The notes under the pieces: generated by a model | What the model saw: only the letters and a program-made list of their open reading frames with translations | What the model was told of the DNA's origin: nothing | Database searches by the model: none | Assembly (NCBI GenBank): GCA_046292385.1 | Contig: JBKBRF010000003.1 | Coordinates: forward strand, 178,231-242,230 | Length of the DNA: 64,000 nt | Direction: 5' to 3' | Source: Armatimonadota bacterium | Lineage (GTDB): Bacteria > Armatimonadota > SYMT01 | In this document: piece by piece, positions 1,458-20,803 of the stretch | How positions within the stretch are numbered: position 1 is the first letter of the stretch | How the letters are laid out: the number at the start of each line of letters is the position of its first letter | Translations under genes and position numbers: made by a program

Positions 1458-1499
1458 CGTAAGATGGGGAGACAGGACCGATCGGACCAGGAGAGTGGA

Positions 1500-1763
1500 A
1501 TGCTGCCGGAAGTGAAGAAGGACGCCACGAACCGCATCAACCGCATCGCGGGACAGGTGGCGGGCGTCAAGAAGATGATCGACGAGGACCGCTACTGCGT
1601 CGACGTGCTGAACCAGATCTCCGCCATCCGCTCCGCGCTCGACCGCCTCGGCGTGGAACTGCTCACCGGCCACCTGGAGAGCTGCGTGATCGGCGCGGAC
1701 GACTGCAAGAAGCACGACTTGCTGGAAGAGGTGCGCGTCTCCCTCAGCCGTTTTCTGAAATAG
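1500..1763 (+). CDS. csoR: CsoR family copper-sensing repressor
   Basis: RINRIAGQV, RYCVDVLNQISA, HLESC (C-H-C ligand set); next to copZ/copA. Confidence 0.93.
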   Translation: MLPEVKKDATNRINRIAGQVAGVKKMIDEDRYCVDVLNQISAIRSALDRLGVELLTGHLESCVIGADDCKKHDLLEEVRVSLSRFLK

Positions 1764-5707: not shown

Positions 5708-6070
5708 ATGCCCCACGTAAGCCCCGAGATGCGCGAGTGTATCGACGCCTGCACCTCCTGCCACCAGACCTGCGTCGAGACGGTGACCCACTGCCTGCAG
5801 ATGGGCGGCAAGCACGCGGAAGCGGACCATATCCGGCTGATGCTCGACTGCGCCGAGATCTGCGAGACGAGCGCCAACTTCATGCTGCGCGGCTCGGACC
5901 TGCACCAGGAGACCTGCCGCACCTGCGCCGTCGTTTGCGAGCGCTGCGCCGAAGACTGCGAGCGCTTCGACGAGGACTTCATGCAGCGGTGCGCCGAGGA
6001 GTGCCGCAACTGTGCGGAGCACTGCCGCCGCATGGCGGGCTCCCAGCGCACGATGGCACGCGCCGCCTAG
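5708..6070 (+). CDS. four-helix-bundle copper storage protein (Csp3/DUF326-like)
   Basis: 16 Cys in CxxC/CxxxC helical spacing, no signal peptide. Confidence 0.88.
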   Translation: MPHVSPEMRECIDACTSCHQTCVETVTHCLQMGGKHAEADHIRLMLDCAEICETSANFMLRGSDLHQETCRTCAVVCERCAEDCERFDEDFMQRCAEECRNCAEHCRRMAGSQRTMARAA

Positions 6071-13758: not shown

Positions 13759-13990
13759 TCCGAACTGAACGCGAAGGCGCGAAGGTTACGCGAAGGACGC
13801 GAAGGGAAGGTCTGGTTGTCGCCAGCCCGCGCGCGAGTGAACTCGTCGCTACATAGGGCGAAGCCCGGCCCCCATACGGGGGCTATACCTCCGCGGGCTC
13901 CGGACACCGTAACCGGAGGAGCCCCGGCTATTCCCTTCAGGTTCCCTTCGCGTCCTTCGCGAGACTTCGCGTCTTCGCGTTCAGTTCGGA
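13759..13990. repeat. MITE-like element with ~50-bp inverted arms of CGCGAAGG units
   Basis: TCCGAACTGAACGCGAAGG... / ...CTTCGCGTTCAGTTCGGA. Confidence 0.8.
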
Positions 13991-14050
13991 ATCCCCGTCT
14001 GGTTCCCTTCACCGCGAGGCGTCGAGCCTTCAAGCGGAGAACTGTTCCGC

Positions 14051-14461
14051 GTGAGTAGTCGACGCACGGAGCGAGAGCCGCTGCCCCCCGGGGAGTTGGA
14101 GGCGGCGGTGGAGCGGTGGGCGGAGCTGTTCAACCGCGAAGAGTACTTCGAGGCGCACGAGGTGCTGGAAGGGTGCTGGATGCACGCGCGGGAGCCGGAG
14201 AAGACGGTGCTGAAGGGGCTGATCCAGGCCGCCGTCGCGCTCTGCCATTACCAGCGCGGCAACGGCCACGGCGCGCGGGTGAAGTCGGCCTCCGCGCTGC
14301 GCTATCTGGGCGGGAGCGACTCCGCGTTCGGGCTCGACCTGGCCGACCTCCGCAGCGCCCTGGAGCGCTTCTTCCAGCCGCTCTGGAATCTCCCGCCCGG
14401 CTCCAGGCCCCCTCCCGCGGGGGAGTGGCCCCGCGTTTCCCGCTCAATGCAGGGGCGGTGA
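14051..14461 (+). CDS. DUF309 domain protein
   Basis: FN.EEYFEAHEVLE..W, KGLIQAAVA..H. Confidence 0.88.
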   Translation: MSSRRTEREPLPPGELEAAVERWAELFNREEYFEAHEVLEGCWMHAREPEKTVLKGLIQAAVALCHYQRGNGHGARVKSASALRYLGGSDSAFGLDLADLRSALERFFQPLWNLPPGSRPPPAGEWPRVSRSMQGR

Positions 14462-14496
14462 CGGACAAACGCTTTCTCTCGTAGAGTCAGGTGGAG

Positions 14497-14537
14497 TTGC
14501 CATGTCCGGAGACACCGGATATACTCCCCCAGGGTAT
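14497..14537 (+). promoter_or_regulatory. sigma70 promoter with overlapping CsoR-type operator
   Basis: TTGCCA(14497)-N17-TATACT(14520); ATACTCCCCCAGGGTAT 14521-14537 matches the cop operators. Confidence 0.8.
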
Positions 14538-14568
14538 GCGCCCCAGGGTGCTCCCGGACGACACTATC

Positions 14569-15024
14569 GTGAACGCACTCCGACAGAACCGGCTCCGCAC
14601 CGCGGTGATGCTGCTGCTGGTCATGGTCTTCTCCATGGCCGGGATGCCGGCGTTCGCCGCGTGTGCCGGGATGCCGGCGACCGGCGCACCCGCCGCGGCT
14701 GCAGCGCAGCCGAAGGAGGCGGGGTGCCATGAGATGGGGGAGAAGCCGTGCTGCTGCGGCCCTTCCCAATCGACCGACGCGGAGTCACCCTCGCTGGGGA
14801 GCGGGTCGTGCGGCTGCGAGCTGCAGGCACCCCTAGCCCCGGCGCCGGCGGAGCCCAAGACCCTTTCGACGGTCTCCGTCGTCGCCGCAGTCACTCCCCC
14901 CGTCGTCTTCGCGCTGACCGCCCCCGCGGAGCGCGCCGCCCTCTTCCCGGATGACTCCGGGATCCCCCGCGACGCCTGTCGCGCCTCCTCTCCTTCTCGC
15001 GCGCCACCGGCAAGCGAGCGCTAG
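14569..15024 (+). CDS. exported Cys-rich leader protein with C-terminal RAPP motif (DUF2946/CruR/CutF-like)
   Basis: GTG start (uncertain), signal peptide, CHEM..PCCC..SCGC, Pro-rich linker, SRAPP four residues before the stop. Confidence 0.75.
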   Translation: MNALRQNRLRTAVMLLLVMVFSMAGMPAFAACAGMPATGAPAAAAAQPKEAGCHEMGEKPCCCGPSQSTDAESPSLGSGSCGCELQAPLAPAPAEPKTLSTVSVVAAVTPPVVFALTAPAERAALFPDDSGIPRDACRASSPSRAPPASER

Positions 15025-15053
15025 CCAGCCTGTCCGCGCGCCTCTGGCGCGTC

Positions 15054-15158
15054 GTTGGCAGGTTGCAGGTTAGCAGGTTTACAGGTTCCGCTTCGCCCGA
15101 TGCGGGCACCCAGCGCAGCCGTCCCAACCTGCAACTTGCAAACCTGCCAACCTGTAAC
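15054..15158. repeat. inverted repeat built of CAGGTT/AACCTG short tandem units
   Basis: GTTGGCAGGTTGCAGGTTAGCAGGTT... / ...AACCTGCAACTTGCAAACCTGCCAACC; second copy at 34851. Confidence 0.8.
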
Positions 15159-15251
15159 AGGCGCTGTGACCCACGCTCGCGTCCCGCCATCGCGGGGCAG
15201 CTATCGGTCCCCCTGGCAGTCCTCGGTGACTGCCGGCGAAGGAGATCTCTG

Positions 15252-15758
15252 ATGAACCGGTTTTCTCGCATGACCCGCCGCATGGTGCTGGCGGGAGCTC
15301 TCGCGGCCACGGCCGCGCTGGGAGGCGCCGCGCTCTCCCCGGCCCTCGCCCACGAGGCGAAGTGCCCCGTCTGCAAGCTCGACGTGGTCCAGGACACGGA
15401 CAAGCTCGATAACGAGGTCGCGCTGAAGAGCGGACGCAAGCGCATCGAGTACCGCTGCGTCTACTGTGCCCTGCAGGACGCCAAGAGCTACCCGGGAGAC
15501 ATCACCGTTCTCGCCCCCTCGGAGCTGAAGGGCAAGCCGGTCACGCTGACCCGCAAGGAAGGCAAGTGGACCGCTTCACCCGAGACCGCGGTGTTCGTCG
15601 GCCACAAGGTGAACCACCGGCAGTGCGAGCTCGGCTACCGGGCGCTGACGACGAAGGAGGCGTTCCCCAAGTGGGTGCAGGCGAACCAGGCGCTGCTGAA
15701 AGACGCCAAGCCGCTGACGCTGGCGGAGCTGCTGGAGCTGGCGAGCCCTGCGAAGTAG
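15252..15758 (+). CDS. Tat-exported Cys-rich metal-binding protein (NosL-like)
   Basis: TRRMVL signal, ALA|H cleavage, CPVC, RCVYC, HRQC. Confidence 0.72.
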   Translation: MNRFSRMTRRMVLAGALAATAALGGAALSPALAHEAKCPVCKLDVVQDTDKLDNEVALKSGRKRIEYRCVYCALQDAKSYPGDITVLAPSELKGKPVTLTRKEGKWTASPETAVFVGHKVNHRQCELGYRALTTKEAFPKWVQANQALLKDAKPLTLAELLELASPAK

Positions 15759-15820
15759 GCGGACGCGCTGCGGCTGCCCTTCCGGAGTGAAGGGCAGCCG
15801 TCGCTCCCGAGGGAGAGACG

Positions 15821-17416
15821 ATGTTACGAACGCTGTCCACCATCGGCACCCTGACGCTCGCCCTGGGCCTCGCGGCGACGGCGAGCTATGCCCAGGGGCC
15901 GGACGCTCACGGCGACCACCACCCGGCGCCTGCCGCCGGCGCGTCGCGAGAGCTGCCGCGGCTGCCGGAGAACCTGCCGCGCTGGCTCGACAACACGAAG
16001 AAGAACCACATCTTTTACAAGCGGGGCAAGTACAACTTCGACGTCTACAACATCCCGGCGCTGGCGCGGGACCTCAACGCCGTCTCCGTGGGTCACGCCC
16101 TTGCCTACGAGGACCTCGTCACCGGCAAGGCGGCGGGCCTGGAGAGCAAGACGTTCGCGCGGATCGACCGCGTGCTCAAGAAGCCGCCGAAGTTCATGCC
16201 GGACGAAGCGGCCCTCTCGCCCACGTTCGGCCGGCGCTACGGCGTGATCGAGCAGGTCTTCGACTGGACCCACATCCTGCACAACCAGACGGTCGACGTG
16301 CTCGCCAGCAAGAAGCTGTCGGAGGCGGAGAAGGACCGGGAGATCGAGCGGCTCTGGAAGTACTACTTCGAGTCGGTGCCGTACGCCATTACGCCGCTGC
16401 CGATGAACATGGACTTCCTGTACAGCCTGCCGTACAGCCGGAAGTTCCGGAACACCTATCCGAAGGTGAACGGCCTCTTCTGGGGCTATCACTGGCTGCA
16501 GAGCGTGATGTACGACATGCTCTACCGCGCTTCCCCGGAAGACCAGCGGGCGGCCTACGCGCTGATCGGCGAGCAGTATCACCGGACGGAGCTGTACCGC
16601 ACCGACCGGCCGTTCATGCCGATGTTCGGGGAGCTGAGCCCCAACTTCGCGACGCGGTTCCCGCACATCGCGAACGCTTTCGACAACCTGCACATGCTCC
16701 ACGACATGCTCAACGACATCCTCGCCACGGAGTGGATGACGGAGAAGCAGAAGGAGGAGCAGGTGAAGCTGGCGATCTGGATGGTCTCCGCCGAAGCGCA
16801 CCGGGGCGAGCAGCCGACGCCGAAGGGGCAGCCGGAGCCCTCTGACCGGCTCCACGACCACCGGCACTTCGACGGCATGCCCGGCATGGGGATGATGACC
16901 GGCATGACCCCGGAGCTGATGTGGATGCCGGCGATGGGCTGGATGAGCATGGCAGACTGCCACCACTGCTCCATGCCGCTCTGGGAGGGGGACGACGCGT
17001 GGCGGAACGCCACCGTGACGGCAGACGGGTGGTCGATGCGGGTCCGCTGTGCCCTCTGCGCGCGCGACATGTCCGCGGAGACCAAGGGCCGCGCGCTGCT
17101 GCGGATCCCGACCGAAGACCCGTACCGGGTGGTGGTGGTCCTCTCCGACGAGCAGGGGTACCTGAAGACCTCCACTCCGGGAGTCGTCTTCCTGGAGAGC
17201 GAAGGCAGCCACGCGGGATGCGACGAGTGGTCGCGCGCGTTCAGCTCCCGGGCCGCCTTCGAAGCCTACGTGCGGGCGAACCCCAGGCTCGCCGGGGCGA
17301 AGGCGCTGAGCTTCGACGAGTGGGCGAAGCTGCAAGGCCGGAAGCCGGATACCTACGTCAAGCCGAAGGGACCGGTGGAGAATCCCTACCAGTCCCCCGG
17401 CGCGCCGGACAACTAG
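15821..17416 (+). CDS. exported His/Met/Cys-rich multidomain protein with C-terminal NosL-like domain
   Basis: signal peptide, HGDHH, YHWLQ, DNLHMLHD, Met-rich linker, CHHC/RCALC/HAGC. Confidence 0.8.
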   Translation: MLRTLSTIGTLTLALGLAATASYAQGPDAHGDHHPAPAAGASRELPRLPENLPRWLDNTKKNHIFYKRGKYNFDVYNIPALARDLNAVSVGHALAYEDLVTGKAAGLESKTFARIDRVLKKPPKFMPDEAALSPTFGRRYGVIEQVFDWTHILHNQTVDVLASKKLSEAEKDREIERLWKYYFESVPYAITPLPMNMDFLYSLPYSRKFRNTYPKVNGLFWGYHWLQSVMYDMLYRASPEDQRAAYALIGEQYHRTELYRTDRPFMPMFGELSPNFATRFPHIANAFDNLHMLHDMLNDILATEWMTEKQKEEQVKLAIWMVSAEAHRGEQPTPKGQPEPSDRLHDHRHFDGMPGMGMMTGMTPELMWMPAMGWMSMADCHHCSMPLWEGDDAWRNATVTADGWSMRVRCALCARDMSAETKGRALLRIPTEDPYRVVVVLSDEQGYLKTSTPGVVFLESEGSHAGCDEWSRAFSSRAAFEAYVRANPRLAGAKALSFDEWAKLQGRKPDTYVKPKGPVENPYQSPGAPDN

Positions 17417-17441
17417 GCCGATGCAACTCAAGGAGATCCAG

Positions 17442-18218
17442 GTGAAAACGTTCCGCATCCTGGCGCCGCTGGCCTTACTGCTTCTGGCCGGCCCCGCCCA
17501 CGCCGTGGACCACAACAACATCGACGCGCACCGGCCGCTGTCGTTCGACGACGCCGACGCGCTCGCTTTCCGGGAGCAGGCGCTGGAATTCGGGCTCGGC
17601 CTCGGCTGGCCCCGGCGGCGCCCGCTCGGGCTGGGACTGGAGGCCGAGTATCTCTACGGCTTCCGCATGAACAGCCACCTGAGCGTCGGCTTCGAGCCCT
17701 CCGTCGGGGGCCGGGCCGGCAGCGAGAGCCCCGCCTTCGACTTCGGCGACGTGTCGCTGGGCCTGTTCCACAACTTCAACCGGGAACACGGGAACACCCC
17801 GGCGTTCTCCCTCCGGGGCGACGTCTTCTTCCCGACCGGCCGCGACTCCCGGGGAGTGGCGGGCCGCCTGCGCGGGATCATGAGCAAGCAGGCCGGCCAG
17901 TACGGGCGGCTGCACGTGAACGTCGATTTGAACGCCCACCCGGACGCCCCGCGCGGGGAGCGGCAGTTCACCCCGGGACTCGTGCTCGGCTACACCCGCC
18001 CGCTCGGCTACCCGACGAAGTTCGACACCACCGGGCTGGCGGAGCTCTCCGTCCGTGCCGGCGATGAGCGCGGCAGCGGCGCGCTGGTCGGCATCGGCCT
18101 CGGCATCCGCAAACAGGTCGGGGTGCGCTCCGTGATGGACCTGGGCGTCCAATCCGACCTGACCGGCGCCTCGCGGGACCGCTTCCGCGTGGTGGCCGGC
18201 TACTCTTACGGCTTCTGA
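17442..18218 (+). CDS. putative outer-membrane beta-barrel protein
   Basis: GTG with AGGAG SD, AHA signal cleavage, amphipathic strands, C-terminal YSYGF. Confidence 0.72.
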   Translation: MKTFRILAPLALLLLAGPAHAVDHNNIDAHRPLSFDDADALAFREQALEFGLGLGWPRRRPLGLGLEAEYLYGFRMNSHLSVGFEPSVGGRAGSESPAFDFGDVSLGLFHNFNREHGNTPAFSLRGDVFFPTGRDSRGVAGRLRGIMSKQAGQYGRLHVNVDLNAHPDAPRGERQFTPGLVLGYTRPLGYPTKFDTTGLAELSVRAGDERGSGALVGIGLGIRKQVGVRSVMDLGVQSDLTGASRDRFRVVAGYSYGF

Positions 18219-18237
18219 CACTCGAGAGGAGCTCACG

Positions 18238-19032
18238 ATGAAACAGATAATCGCCCTCGCCGGGATCAGCCTGTTCCTGGCCACCGGCTCCGCCGCGGCA
18301 CCGGGCGCAAAGCCGGCGCCCAAGAAGCCGGCAAAGCCCGCCGTGCCGACCGCGGCCGCCAAGATGGCCTTCACCGACGCGGCCTCCACCTGGGGAGACA
18401 TCCAGGTCCAGGTGAAGGACCTGGCACAACTGATCCAGGAGAAGCGCCTGGACGAGGTGCACCCCGTCGCGTTCGAGATCCGGGACCTGGTCCGCACCCT
18501 GCCGGACAAGAGCAAGTCGCTCCCGGCCGCCGGCATGAAGAAGCTGGAAGCGCAGGTCCGGGTGATGGACCGTCTCGCGGAGCAGCTCGACCGATACGCG
18601 GACGCGGGGAAGCAGCCGGAGACGGCGCGCCAGCAGCAGGCGGTGCTCCGCGCCCTCGGCACCATCAAAGCGCTCTACCCGGCGGGTGTGCTGACCAGCC
18701 AGCCCCCCGCGGCGCCCGCGGCTTCGAAGGACCGGCAGCTCTACCTGACCCCGGGCGGCGCCTATACCGAAGCGGACATTAAGGCGAACGGCAGCCAGCT
18801 GCCGTCCCAGAAGTTCCGCGGCGTGCGGGTGAACCACGATCTGAAGCCGGCGGTGGGAGACCGCATCTGCCCGATCACCCTCACCAAGGCGAACCCCGGC
18901 TATAGCTGGGTGATTGGCGGGAAGGAGTACCTCTTCTGCTGCCCGCCGTGCCTGGAAGAGTTCCTCACGCTCGCCAAGAAGGACCCCGCGGCGATCAAGC
19001 CGCCGGAGACCTACGTCAAGCAGGCGCCGTAG
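18238..19032 (+). CDS. exported protein with helical domain and C-terminal YHS/TRASH-like domain
   Basis: signal peptide; CPIT..YLFCCPPC..F..DP. Confidence 0.8.
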   Translation: MKQIIALAGISLFLATGSAAAPGAKPAPKKPAKPAVPTAAAKMAFTDAASTWGDIQVQVKDLAQLIQEKRLDEVHPVAFEIRDLVRTLPDKSKSLPAAGMKKLEAQVRVMDRLAEQLDRYADAGKQPETARQQQAVLRALGTIKALYPAGVLTSQPPAAPAASKDRQLYLTPGGAYTEADIKANGSQLPSQKFRGVRVNHDLKPAVGDRICPITLTKANPGYSWVIGGKEYLFCCPPCLEEFLTLAKKDPAAIKPPETYVKQAP

Positions 19033-19094
19033 CGCCCACTCATCCATTTCCTCCCGCCGGGCTCTCCGGCGGGAGCCTTCAAGGAGTAAGCGAA

Positions 19095-19484
19095 ATGTTG
19101 TGGAAGAAGAACCCCCTGCTGCTCGCCGCGGCAGCCCTGGCAGCGGCGCTGGTCGTCCCGGCCGCAGCGGAGAAGAGCAAGCCGGCCCCGAAAGCCGCAC
19201 TGAGCTGCCCGGTGATGAAGGCCCCGATCCCGGACAAGGCGGACGCCGGATTCGCCACCGTCAATAACGAGCCGGTCTACGTCTGCTGCCCCGGCTGCAT
19301 CGGAGCGATCAAGAAAGAGCCGGCCAAGTACCTGAAGAAGGTGAAGGATCCGGTCACCGGCAAGCCGTTCACCGTCACCGCGAAGACGCCGAAGGTGGAG
19401 CACGGCGACGGCCTCTTCCTCTTCGCGAGCACGAAGAGCCGGGACACCTTCCAGGCGAACCCCGCTCGCTACACCCGCCGCTAA
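19095..19484 (+). CDS. exported tandem YHS-domain protein
   Basis: CPVM..YVCCPGC..EPAKY and DPVTG..FAS..FQANPARY; AAGGAG SD. Confidence 0.82.
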   Translation: MLWKKNPLLLAAAALAAALVVPAAAEKSKPAPKAALSCPVMKAPIPDKADAGFATVNNEPVYVCCPGCIGAIKKEPAKYLKKVKDPVTGKPFTVTAKTPKVEHGDGLFLFASTKSRDTFQANPARYTRR

Positions 19485-19492
19485 CGGGATTC

Positions 19493-19676
19493 TTCGACAC
19501 AGAGGGACACAGAAGAACCGACAGAGGAACACAGATTGAACACCAGAGTGGTGCCGGGGGCGACTACTCCACCATGACGGTTCGCCCGGTCTGAGTCTAG
19601 AGTTCCGGAGATCTCTGTTCGCGGCGAAGCCGCTCTGTGCGTGTCTGTTGGTTCGTCTGTGTCCCTCTGTGTCGAA
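19493..19676. repeat. MITE-like element with ACACAGAG-type inverted arms
   Basis: TTCGACACAGAGGGACACAGA... / ...TCTGTGTCCCTCTGTGTCGAA. Confidence 0.8.
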
Positions 19677-19771
19677 AAACCGGAACCCGAAACCCACGCG
19701 GCGGCGCGTCGTCTGAATGGGCAAACCACTCTCGTCTACCCTCTCTGCCTTCGGGCCCCGGAGGAGTCGCC

Positions 19772-20803
19772 ATGTCTGAGATGAAGAAGCCCGCCGCGTG
19801 CCCGGACTGCGAGCTCTCGCGGCGCCAGTTCCTGAAGACGGCCGGCGTCGCCGCGGTCGCCGCGGCCGCCGCGCCCGTGTTCGCCACCGCGCGGGTGGGC
19901 GCCGCACCGGCCGCGGGCAGCCAGGACACGCTGGTGTCGCAGCTCTACGGCACGCTGAACAACGCGCAGAAGTCGGCGGTCTGCTTCGGCTGGGACCATC
20001 CCCGCCGCCAGATGATCGCCAACAACTGGATGATCGTGCCCCAGACGATCGGCAAGTTCTACACGCCGGACCAGCAGGAGCTGATCACCGCGATCTTCAA
20101 GAGCGCCCACTCGGAAGAATGGGTGAGCCAGCGGCTGAAGCAGATGACCGACGACTCCGGCCCGGAAGGCCTCAAGGCGTACAGCATCGCCATGTTCGGC
20201 ACCCCCGGCTCCGGCAAGTTCGAGTGGGTGCTCACCGGTCGCCACCTGACGCTGCGCGTCGACGGCGACAGCGAGCCGGGCGTCGCCTTCGGCGGGCCGA
20301 TCTTCTACGGCCACGCCGCCCAGGGCTTCGATGAGAAAGCGGATCATCCGGGCAACGTCTACTGGTACCAGGCCCTGCGCGCCAACGAGGTCTTCAAGGC
20401 GCTCGACGGCAAGCAGCGGGAGAAGGCGCTGCAGACCGGCGACATCCCGGGCGAGAGCCCGCAGGTGCTCGTCTCCCGCGCGGCGGAGCAGCGCGCCGGC
20501 CTGCCGGTGGCCCAGATGACCCGCGACCAGCGCGAGCTGGTGGAGAAGGTGCTCGCCGACCTCCTCGCCCCGATGAGCCCGAAGGACCAGTCGGAGGCCC
20601 GCCGCTACCTGCAGGCGAACGGCGGCGTGGAGAGCCTCCACATGGCGTTCTACAAGCAGGGCGACATCGGCAACGACGGCGTCTGGGACGTCTGGCGCCT
20701 GGAAGGTCCGGCGATGAGCTGGTACTTCCGCGGCGAGCCGCACGTCCACACCTGGGCGTGGCTCGGCGAGAAGCCGCTCGCCACCGCCCCTCCCGGACCG
20801 TAA
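19772..20803 (+). CDS. DUF3500 domain protein (Tat)
   Basis: SRRQFLK, FGTPGSGKFEWVLTGRHLT, WRLEGP..FRGEPHVH. Confidence 0.85.
   Translation: MSEMKKPAACPDCELSRRQFLKTAGVAAVAAAAAPVFATARVGAAPAAGSQDTLVSQLYGTLNNAQKSAVCFGWDHPRRQMIANNWMIVPQTIGKFYTPDQQELITAIFKSAHSEEWVSQRLKQMTDDSGPEGLKAYSIAMFGTPGSGKFEWVLTGRHLTLRVDGDSEPGVAFGGPIFYGHAAQGFDEKADHPGNVYWYQALRANEVFKALDGKQREKALQTGDIPGESPQVLVSRAAEQRAGLPVAQMTRDQRELVEKVLADLLAPMSPKDQSEARRYLQANGGVESLHMAFYKQGDIGNDGVWDVWRLEGPAMSWYFRGEPHVHTWAWLGEKPLATAPPGP

Follow-up and report, generated by a model that had tools for sequence, protein, structure and literature searches.

A candidate copper-responsive operon with a CsoR-type operator and a RAPP leader ahead of an envelope gene module in an Armatimonadota bacterium

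To our knowledge, the envelope copper defences described in diderm bacteria are few, comprising Cus, Pco/Cop and the multicopper oxidases, and metal biology has hardly been studied by experiment in Armatimonadota. Under copper stress, outer-membrane copper proteins of the PcoB/CopB type and CusCFBA reportedly move periplasmic copper, or hold it, at the outer membrane. Here, a 64,000-nucleotide stretch of DNA from an Armatimonadota bacterium (GTDB lineage SYMT01; assembly GCA_046292385.1, contig JBKBRF010000003.1, positions 178,231 to 242,230 of the forward strand), called the window throughout, was analyzed for a cluster of six genes at positions 14497 to 19484, which is headed by a CsoR-type operator and by a Cys-rich open reading frame (ORF) ending in an Arg-Ala-Pro-Pro (RAPP) motif. 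On the basis of sequence and comparative analysis, we consider it on balance likely that this cluster forms a copper-responsive operon controlled both by CsoR and by the leader, and that it encodes an undescribed envelope module for the capture or export of Cu(I). The cluster is probably a new bacterial way of handling excess copper in the envelope. Its regulatory parts appear to be of known kinds, and its structural module is undescribed in the literature and libraries searched.

The type-2 CsoR operator follows an experimentally derived rule, a 5'-TAC-N9-GTA-3' repeat that flanks G-tracts, as set out in PMC3902906. Among leaders that act through ribosome arrest, CruR of Bordetella pertussis (Bp2923) is described in PMC9426467 as a DUF2946 protein with a CxxC motif, RAPP three residues from its end, 45 residues between the Cys motif and RAPP, and a 162-bp spacer; in that account, copper relieves the arrest and Rho then terminates transcription. 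The arrest was demonstrated in vitro in PMC12992588, which also reports RAPP or RGPP ORFs upstream of metal genes across many phyla. For CutF of Rhodobacter capsulatus, PMC9973294 describes a spacing of 45 residues and periplasmic copper binding that prolongs stalling and opens a stem-loop over the Shine-Dalgarno (SD) sequence of cutO. NosL is presented in PMC8457098 as an assembly chaperone whose five sulfur ligands bind Zn(II) and Cu(I).

Promoter, CsoR-type operator and conservation of the cluster

The operator ahead of gene 1, with the letters ATAC TCCCCCAGG GTAT, overlaps both the -10 box TATACT (14520-14525) and the expected transcription start, and its inverted repeat and C/G tracts satisfy the type-2 rule published in PMC3902906. 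A degenerate form of the pattern occurred six times in the window against 0.24 expected, a count reached by none of 100 shuffles, and the consensus scan for promoters gave two sites in 13900-19900 where 0.2 were expected. The remaining window operators lie at 1441-1457, 1791-1807 and 1820-1836, surrounding csoR (1464-1763) and a copZ-like gene. The initial annotation, made from the letters alone, had proposed exactly this arrangement, a TTGCCA-N17-TATACT promoter whose -10 box is overlapped by an operator like those at csoR and copZ 13 kb away, and the scans bear it out. In the genome-wide motif scan that it also suggested, the pattern matched 11 times in the whole 7.04-Mb assembly (both strands counted) and the reversed control gave none. 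The assembly-wide matches beyond the csoR/copZ and gene-1 sites are a pair on contig C31 and one-mismatch singletons on contigs C4 and C29. Taken together, the sequence evidence suggests that the gene-1 operator is a new member of the CsoR regulon.

The repressor itself is encoded by the sole CsoR-family gene of the genome (Table 1), which adjoins copZ, a cupredoxin-like gene and copA. Read from its sequence, it carries the pattern Cys45-His70-Cys74, with 25- and 4-residue spacing, which we take to be a Cu(I) signature, and its top NCBIfam match is the copper sensor RicR, below cut-off. As a first layer of control, the single CsoR would sit on the TAC-N9-GTA operator over the -10 box and would depart on binding cytoplasmic Cu(I), as its sequence and conservation suggest. 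The same features bear on the target of the system. The CsoR family also includes persulfide and Ni/Co sensors, and the best structural matches of the cluster's Cys-rich domains are to MerB, so that another thiophilic species such as silver, mercury, organomercury or reactive sulfur could be the target instead of copper; we regard this as highly improbable in view of the C45-H70-C74 pattern, the RicR match, the position beside copZ and copA, a MerB Pfam match that falls below cut-off, and a leader class that is linked to copper in the literature.

The six ORFs 3' of the promoter are co-oriented, and each begins with a hydrophobic signal-like N-terminus when read by eye rather than by a predictor, in line with the export signals noted initially. 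Also in agreement with that first description, no component family of Cus, Pco or Cop was found among genes 1-6 in the Pfam and NCBIfam scans. Conservation was examined in two sets of loci. For the first, 41 genomes around that of the window were searched and 10 loci were fetched; for the second, one genome per species was scanned among public genomes, 276 stretches were found to encode a gene-3 relative, and the best 80 were retained. Since contigs of the ten fetched loci recur among the public loci, the two sets overlap and are not independent. Gene-3 relatives occurred in 11 of the 41 genomes, the window's own included, covering all six of the family and four in two other families of the phylum. 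Synteny had been set beforehand as a check, and the core was kept: genes 2, 3 and 4 are adjacent in all ten fetched loci, gene 2 lies upstream of gene 3 in 77 of the 80 public loci (the three misses are contig starts), and gene 4 lies downstream in 79 (the sole miss is a contig end). A protein search returned 488 gene-3 relatives, mostly from Armatimonadota and every one annotated as hypothetical. Judged by record titles, most public loci belong to Armatimonadota sensu lato (Fimbriimonadaceae, Chthonomonas, Abditibacteriaceae and Armatimonadaceae), and others come from Elusimicrobiota, Zixibacteria, Holophagae/Acidobacteria and Ignavibacteriales.

The regulatory elements vary more than the core. 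With up to two mismatches allowed, the operator stands upstream of gene 1 in 5 of the 10 fetched loci, where it occupies the 17 nt between the two boxes of a TTGACG/TTGATC/TTGTCG...TATACT/TATAAT promoter or, in locus L027, abuts TATAAT; a CsoR-type operator was likewise present in 11 of the 34 public loci that carry the leader. The initial annotation would have been refuted by an operator and a gene order that are not conserved in relatives, and the loci do not bear out that refutation; the remainder of both sets have no clear operator. By tblastn, csoR was detected in two of the ten fetched loci, gene 5 in six and gene 6 in two. In the public set, csoR lies in or beside the cluster in 15 of the 80 loci, directly 3' of gene 4 in the Fimbriimonadaceae type. 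Operator-like palindromes were not found in loci of that type with the patterns used here, and an operator there, if it exists, would differ from our pattern. In locus L025, cupredoxin-like, DUF305/CopM-like and Cys-rich Csp3-like ORFs, all named by eye, lie directly upstream of gene 2.

Several further observations concern the surroundings of these sites. The operator pair on C31 (44891-44936; locus L004, about 1501-1546) makes up a third locus with CsoR operators. Its two copies are 29 bp apart, exactly as at copZ, and lie between two divergently transcribed genes, one for a DJ-1/PfpI protein whose N-terminus is signal-like and one for a protein of the ODP/metallo-beta-lactamase fold; both may be further members of the copper regulon. 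In the window, a membrane-anchored cupredoxin-like gene (PF13473; 2091-2486) has copZ on one side and copA on the other, and a gene for a Cys-rich four-helix DUF326 (Csp3-like) protein (5708-6070) lies 0.7 kb past copA. On the reverse strand of L029, two copies of a 24-nt direct repeat, CCGACCACAGGCG[CT]GTGGACAA, precede the leader by about 160-240 nt, and this repeat may be the site of a different regulator that replaced CsoR. A gene for a DUF3500 protein with a twin-arginine (Tat) signal (19772-20803) is co-oriented downstream of the operon; it was rejected as an operon member, as it is not beside the cluster in the ten relatives' loci.

Table 1. Features of the cluster and of its putative regulator (positions in the window)
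Feature	Position	Strand	Details
CsoR-type operator ATACTCCCCCAGGGTAT, TAC-N9-GTA dyad with C/G tracts	14521..14537	.	Pattern scan
Sigma-70-type promoter, TTGCCA (-35), 17-nt spacer, TATACT (-10)	14497..14525	+	Consensus scan, 10/12 matches
csoR	1464..1763	+	PF02583, 93.9 bits; sole CsoR-family gene of the genome (assembly 98.45% complete)
Gene 1, 151-aa exported Cys-rich leader	14569..15024	+	CCC 61-63, CxC 81-83, RAPP 144-147
RAPP codons CGC GCG CCA CCG	14998..15009	+	Sequence
Anti-SD UCUCCUUC inside gene 1	14989..14996	+	Pairs with the gene-2 SD in minimum free energy and centroid folds
Gene-2 Shine-Dalgarno region GAAGGAGA	15238..15245	+	RNA folding
Gene 2, 168-aa twin-arginine-signal protein, CxxC...CxxC...HxxC	15252..15758	+	Paralogue of the gene-3 C-terminal domain
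Gene 3, 531 aa	15821..17416	+	Signal peptide; His-rich helical domain ~45-332; linker ~345-376; Cys domain ~377-505
Gene 4, 258-aa outer-membrane beta-barrel	17442..18218	+	PF13557 (Phenol_MetA_deg), 27.3 bits against a cut-off of 22
Gene 5, 264-aa exported protein, helical N-domain, C-terminal TRASH/YHS-like Cys motif	18238..19032	+	Below cut-off
Gene 6, 129-aa exported protein, one Cys-bearing and one Cys-free YHS-like repeat	19095..19484	+	Below cut-off
Long hairpin, gene 1-gene 2 spacer, dispersed REP-like repeat	15054..15158	.	26-nt arms, 85% complementary
Inverted repeat, 46-nt arms, dispersed repeat 3' of gene 6	19490..19679	.	45 short matches on many contigs

The RAPP leader and its possible read-outs

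Gene 1, for which an alternative in-frame ATG lies at 14536, places its RAPP four residues before the stop codon. The initial annotation had recognized the motif, which stands, and had listed the product merely as an exported protein, overlooking its putative role as a second control, acting after transcription, like that of CruR and CutF. Identity among the orthologues is only 24-35%; all nine sequences keep the N-terminal signal, a Cys after the signal, the CxC motif and RAPP 2-7 residues before the stop, with 60-64 residues between CxC and the Arg. A leader ORF was found in 34 of the 80 public loci (RAPP in 31, RGPP in 3, with a tail of 1-7 residues before the stop), whereas chance, at the genomic frequency of ORFs ending in RAPP (211 per 14 Mb of strand), would account for about 2 of the 80. 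Among the 33 public leaders with CxC, the CxC-to-Arg spacing is 60-67 residues in 32 and 94 in the remaining one. The leader is directly upstream of gene 2 in 24 public loci, and in 10 a gene of about 1.2-1.4 kb intervenes (L074, L082, L085, L098, L101, L102, L104, L107, L113 and L115), which in L115 is YtkA-like (PF13115). The spacers between genes 1 and 2 in the orthologous loci measure 149-393 nt. When all stop-to-stop ORFs were counted, RAPP in the last 12 residues was not enriched genome-wide (211 against 196-285 for permutations). Because this genome is GC-rich, the motif alone is uninformative, and the case for a leader rests on conserved position and spacing.

From these sequence features, we identify gene 1 as a putative CruR/CutF-like ribosome-arrest leader, apparently a divergent and unannotated branch of a known kind. 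It has no NCBIfam match, and a profile search with it found just eight database proteins, all unnamed. Armatimonadota, NosL and YHS go unmentioned in the text supplements of PMC9973294, and the published supplementary lists of CutF and CruR proteins may include the gene-1 family. Two other ORFs with similar endings were seen elsewhere in the genome. A 120-aa signal-bearing His/Cys-rich ORF ending in SRGPPHS (C70:7222-7584; L034 223-585) lies about 140 nt upstream of genes for an unknown 451-aa exported protein, ZnuA and an ABC ATPase, and may be a zinc-type arrest leader. Another arrest leader may be a 149-aa exported ORF with nine Cys that ends in SRGPPRLG (C7:69148-69597; L031 349-798), upstream of genes for a Cys-rich 178-aa exported protein and an OsmC-like protein.

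As a second layer of control, and by analogy with CutF and CruR, the ribosome translating gene 1 would stall at the C-terminal RAPP. The CruR toeprint in PMC12992588 would, by analogy, put CCA (15004-15006) in the P site of the arrested ribosome. The CxC motif lies 60-67 residues N-terminal to RAPP and would then be just out of the channel of the general secretion (Sec) pathway and able to meet periplasmic copper. The anti-SD UCUCCUUC consists of Ser-Pro-Ser codons 8-15 nt 5' of the P-site codon, the first Pro of RAPP, which would place it within the footprint of a ribosome arrested at RAPP. The stalled ribosome would thus cover the anti-SD in this window and free the ribosome-binding site of gene 2, and stalling prolonged by copper would turn gene-2 translation on. 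RNA folding is consistent with such a switch. The segment 14985-15262 folds at -138.8 kcal/mol (z -5.27, 200 shuffles), the SD/anti-SD pairing in the window has an ensemble probability of 0.96, and in five of nine minimum free energy folds the SD pairs no more than 15 nt from the P site. SD release is therefore plausible in this window; it is not the general read-out of the leader family. Alternatively, the read-out could be that Rho is kept from terminating transcription in the last third of gene 1, which is rich in C and poor in G (C/G 1.6-2.15 over 14830-15040) and leaves room for Rho-dependent attenuation as in CruR.

This last resemblance also bears on the sign of the response. CruR, the only RAPP copper leader with arrest shown in vitro, is relieved of arrest by copper in the accounts of PMC9426467 and PMC12992588, the cruR rut region has a counterpart in the C-rich, G-poor last third of gene 1, and NosL itself appears in PMC8457098 as an assembly chaperone. 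If gene 1 behaved likewise, copper would relieve the arrest and switch the operon off, so that it would be expressed in a copper window only or would serve copper acquisition or the supply of cuproenzymes. We hold this to be decidedly improbable, since the CsoR derepression expected to turn the promoter on at high copper would be cancelled by a copper-off leader, the neighbours of the cluster in relatives are detoxification genes, and NosZ was not found above cut-off in the genome with TIGR04246, the sole model searched. A leader that copper turns on, coupled to capture or export, is favoured because the promoter would be derepressed by copper and because the relatives' neighbours are detoxification genes.

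The spacer between genes 1 and 2 also contains the hairpin listed in Table 1, which was rejected as a regulatory structure because it is a dispersed genomic repeat with 41 short matches over many contigs. It and the inverted repeat at 19490-19679 are made of dispersed families of the GTTGCAGGTT type and the ACAGAGGGACACAGA type. Both look like repetitive extragenic palindromic (REP) elements or miniature inverted-repeat transposable elements (MITEs) that mark intergenic spacers, and the repeat 3' of gene 6 is likely the end of the operon.

The exported proteins and a predicted barrel partnership

Gene 2 carries a twin-arginine signal in nine of nine orthologues, followed by a conserved ALA-HEA junction and without a lipobox. 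Its CxxC...CxxC...HxxC pattern is invariant and is shared, again invariantly, by the C-terminal domain of gene 3; it is reminiscent of the sulfur-rich Zn/Cu site described for NosL in PMC8457098. A structural model of gene 3 built from a 28-sequence alignment reached a predicted local distance difference test score (pLDDT) of 83.8 and a predicted template modeling score (pTM) of 0.84. Residues about 358-510 of the model match MerB (5c17_A, Z 8.6, root-mean-square deviation (rmsd) 4.3 over 125 aligned residues; 3f2g_A, Z 8.4) and NosL (7og7_A, Z 8.1, rmsd 3.6, 115 aligned), with the next unrelated row at 5.0. Foldseek likewise returned MerB for this domain (probability 1.00, E 0.035). A MerB/NosL-like fold is accordingly assigned to this domain and to its paralogue gene 2, so that the two NosL-like Cys-rich proteins of the initial annotation hold at the level of fold, while the NosL Pfam model gives no match. 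Both would be thiolate proteins that bind Cu(I).

The rest of gene 3 is less familiar. The protein as a whole belongs to no Pfam or NCBIfam family, and it finds solely its own unnamed cluster in the ESM Atlas; sequence searches of the PDB with gene 3 (as a profile) and with genes 4, 5 and 6 returned nothing meaningful. Its linker contains HDHRH and a Met-rich segment (HDHRH...GMPGMGMM...MWMP..MGWMSM). The N-domain (about 45-332) is the most conserved part, with H92, E97, E144, D148, H151, H154, H224, D288, H291, H294, D295 and D299 invariant. Folded alone, it reached a pLDDT of 88.9; Foldseek gave a best E of 0.94, and none of 48,161 chains matched at Z of at least 5 (best Z 4.9), the top rows being unrelated seven-helix membrane proteins. 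As modeled, this domain of ~280 residues thus has no Pfam match and no recognizable solved relative, and we do not claim a proven new fold. An N-domain profile retrieved 379 cluster representatives at E up to 0.001, and 30 distant homologues were scanned for fused domains. A PF13557 barrel was fused at the N-terminus in two, DUF2231 in two, and cytochrome c, a pyrroloquinoline quinone (PQQ) propeller and SnoaL in one each; five had Met-rich tails (low-complexity and below cut-off), and 18 had nothing else. The DUF2231, cytochrome c, PQQ beta-propeller and SnoaL fusions (proteins P0137, P0171, P0156, P0161 and P0135) hint at a redox or electron-transfer link. By eye, the ORFs upstream in loci L024 and L025 include a heme-c-like CxxCH motif and DUF2231-like sequence.

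Such fusions raise the question of an enzyme. In that case, the gene-3 N-domain would act in the periplasm as a redox metalloenzyme, such as a Cu(I) oxidase, with the NosL-like domains as its copper chaperones, and the operon would detoxify copper by oxidation in the manner of CutO or CueO instead of exporting it. At least six invariant His (H92, H151, H154, H224, H291 and H294) and several Asp/Glu on helices would suit a metal site, the fusions to cytochrome c, the PQQ propeller and DUF2231 fit, gene 2 and some gene-3 homologues have Tat signals like those of cofactor-loaded enzymes, and CutF, the closest leader analogue, controls an oxidase according to PMC9973294. This is nonetheless distinctly unlikely in our judgment: the N-domain resembles no known oxidase fold in the searches above, the signal of gene 3 in the window is of the Sec type, and the partnership with the barrel would be left unexplained.

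That partnership begins with gene 4, whose assignment as a beta-barrel in the initial annotation is upheld by its Pfam match (Table 1). The mature N-terminus VDHNN is conserved, and the protein ends in YGF. Among the matches listed for the PF13557/Phenol_MetA_deg literature, no copper-related title appeared. When the gene-3 N-domain was modeled together with mature gene 4, the complex gave an ipSAE of 0.87, against 0.65 for the best of three controls. The mark used was reached by 116 of 157 solved complexes and by 2 of 215 mismatched pairs, a calibration that is rough since custom alignments were used. The runs had at least 88% of contacts in common, with a partner pLDDT of at least 82. On the barrel, the predicted contacts recur every 35-40 residues (23-26, 39-45, 73-77, 111-121, 150-156, 187-195, 225-229 and 258), which we read as turns at one mouth of the barrel. 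On gene 3, the contacts predicted against these turns involve residues about 59-65 and 117-141. The model thus predicts that the gene-3 N-domain caps the gene-4 barrel. This pairing, backed by the fusions and by the model, is directly testable.

Genes 5 and 6 were each found in 22 of the 80 public loci. Their Cys spacing resembles that of the YHS/TRASH family, in which TRASH_HVO_1752_C scored 21.3 against a cut-off of 27. The initial annotation called both YHS proteins, and YHS Pfam matches do exist, below the cut-off in each case. In the proposed mechanism, they would be lineage-variable accessory binders. Cu(I) would be bound by the thiolates of the Tat-exported gene-2 product and of the gene-3 C-terminal domain, the Met-rich segment of gene 3 would add to this, and its His-rich helical domain would dock on the periplasmic mouth of the barrel, so that periplasmic copper would be captured and passed to, and probably out through, the outer membrane.

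A bolder version of this mechanism would make genes 3 and 4 a novel type of outer-membrane copper extrusion device that needs neither a resistance-nodulation-division (RND) pump nor TonB. A His-rich helical bundle would cap a small barrel and be fed Cu(I) by the NosL-like domain and the Met-rich arm, and expression would follow an AND gate over two compartments, with cytoplasmic copper read by CsoR and periplasmic copper by the CxC-RAPP leader, whose spacer of 60-67 residues puts the sensor fully outside the Sec channel. We offer this as a doubtful but specific proposal. With the same regulation, the products could also merely buffer or sequester periplasmic Cu(I), the barrel anchoring gene 3 and no metal crossing the membrane. 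Storage would suit the abundance of thiolate, Met and His sites in genes 2, 3, 5 and 6, a conducting pore is hypothetical, and sequestration had been left open in the initial annotation; we still find mere storage unlikely, given that the barrel matches genes 2 and 3 in conservation (79 of 80 loci), is fused to the N-domain elsewhere, and has its predicted contacts on one mouth, which fits a gated channel better than an anchor.

A number of observations weigh against a two-layered copper operon for capture or export, and we collect them here. As to the operator, it was absent within two mismatches from 3 of the 10 fetched loci and from one more whose contig ends about 180 bases upstream of the leader, and a further locus, L029, has a degenerate, lengthened copy; in the public set, 23 of the 34 leader-bearing loci have none near the leader at the same tolerance. 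As to the leader, 46 of the 80 public loci have no recognizable RAPP leader within 1.7 kb upstream of gene 2, and at least 1.7 kb of upstream sequence is available in 36 of these. Gene 1 and its eight orthologues match no Pfam family, DUF2946 (PF11162) being matched by none of the nine at E up to 10. Compared with CutF as described in PMC9973294, gene 1 has CxC (plus CCC) instead of CxxxC and 60-67 residues instead of 45, and it has neither the CxxC at 45 residues nor the PF11162 match of CruR. As to the read-out, the ensemble SD/anti-SD probability is at least 0.72 in only three of nine loci and near 0 in three, and direct complementarity exceeds every control window in 4 of 24 loci (mean best helix 6.1 against 5.5 bp), on which ground anti-SD pairing was rejected as a family-wide mechanism. 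As to the proteins, the MerB (PF03243) match of gene 2 stands at 19.3 bits, below the cut-off of 27, the NosL profile (PF05573) leaves genes 2 and 3 unmatched even at E up to 1 in the whole-genome search and Pfam scan, and the YHS scores of genes 6 and 5 (27.3 and 21.2 bits) lie below the cut-off of 30.3. With custom alignments, the margin of the complex score over its best control is just 0.22, where 0.20 was required. Despite these points, the comparative evidence supports the initial view of a copper-induced envelope system.

Comparison with described systems

PcoB/CopB and CusCFBA reportedly act in a role like the one proposed here, and no homology connects them with the cluster, which has a small PF13557 barrel, neither an RND pump nor a multicopper oxidase, and a periplasmic partner with a new domain. 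NosL (7OG7; PMC8457098) and MerB have a fold like that of gene 2 and the gene-3 Cys domain (Z 8.1-8.6), and the likeness extends, as far as the NosL source describes it, to a sulfur-rich metal site near the N-terminal part of the domain. Genes 2 and 3 differ from NosL in having no sequence-level membership and, in gene 2, a Tat signal in place of a lipobox. They also differ from both proteins in their CxxC...CxxC...HxxC ligands, in the fusion of one copy to a new helical domain, and in the absence of a nos cluster around them.

CutF heads cutFOG (PMC9973294; bioRxiv 10.1101/2025.02.05.636593) and, in those accounts, likewise encodes a small protein exported by Sec, which carries a Cys motif and, at its C-terminus, a Pro-rich stalling motif. 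The next gene in that copper-detoxification operon encodes a Tat-exported copper protein and has its SD shielded by RNA pairing (PMC9973294). The gene-1 loci differ in their spacers of 149-393 nt, in the missing DUF2946 match, in downstream genes that encode no oxidase, and in SD shielding by the arrest site that is clear in only 4 of 24. CruR, as portrayed in PMC9426467 and PMC12992588, resembles gene 1 in its export signal, its conserved Cys-to-RAPP spacing and a RAPP near the stop (2-7 residues before it), and PMC9426467 adds a long structured GC-rich spacer, a C-rich 3' region and the position as first gene of a copper-related operon. In contrast, CruR heads a copper-repressed TonB uptake operon, and its arrest is relieved by copper (PMC9426467, PMC12992588).

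In the literature examined, we found no precedent for a CsoR-type metalloregulator and a nascent-peptide copper sensor on one operon. If the proposal is correct, a classical metalloregulator and a nascent-peptide sensor would together allow copper to be sensed in two compartments. The CsoR regulon of Streptomyces lividans (csoR, copZA1 and copZA2), as described in PMC3902906, is similar in its TAC-N9-GTA dyads with C/G tracts over promoter elements, in an autoregulated repressor beside copZ-copA, and in several operators per genome. The target in the window is a six-gene exported cluster 13 kb from csoR, whereas that source describes a CopZ/CopA efflux pair, and here a putative nascent-peptide leader is added 3' of the operator.

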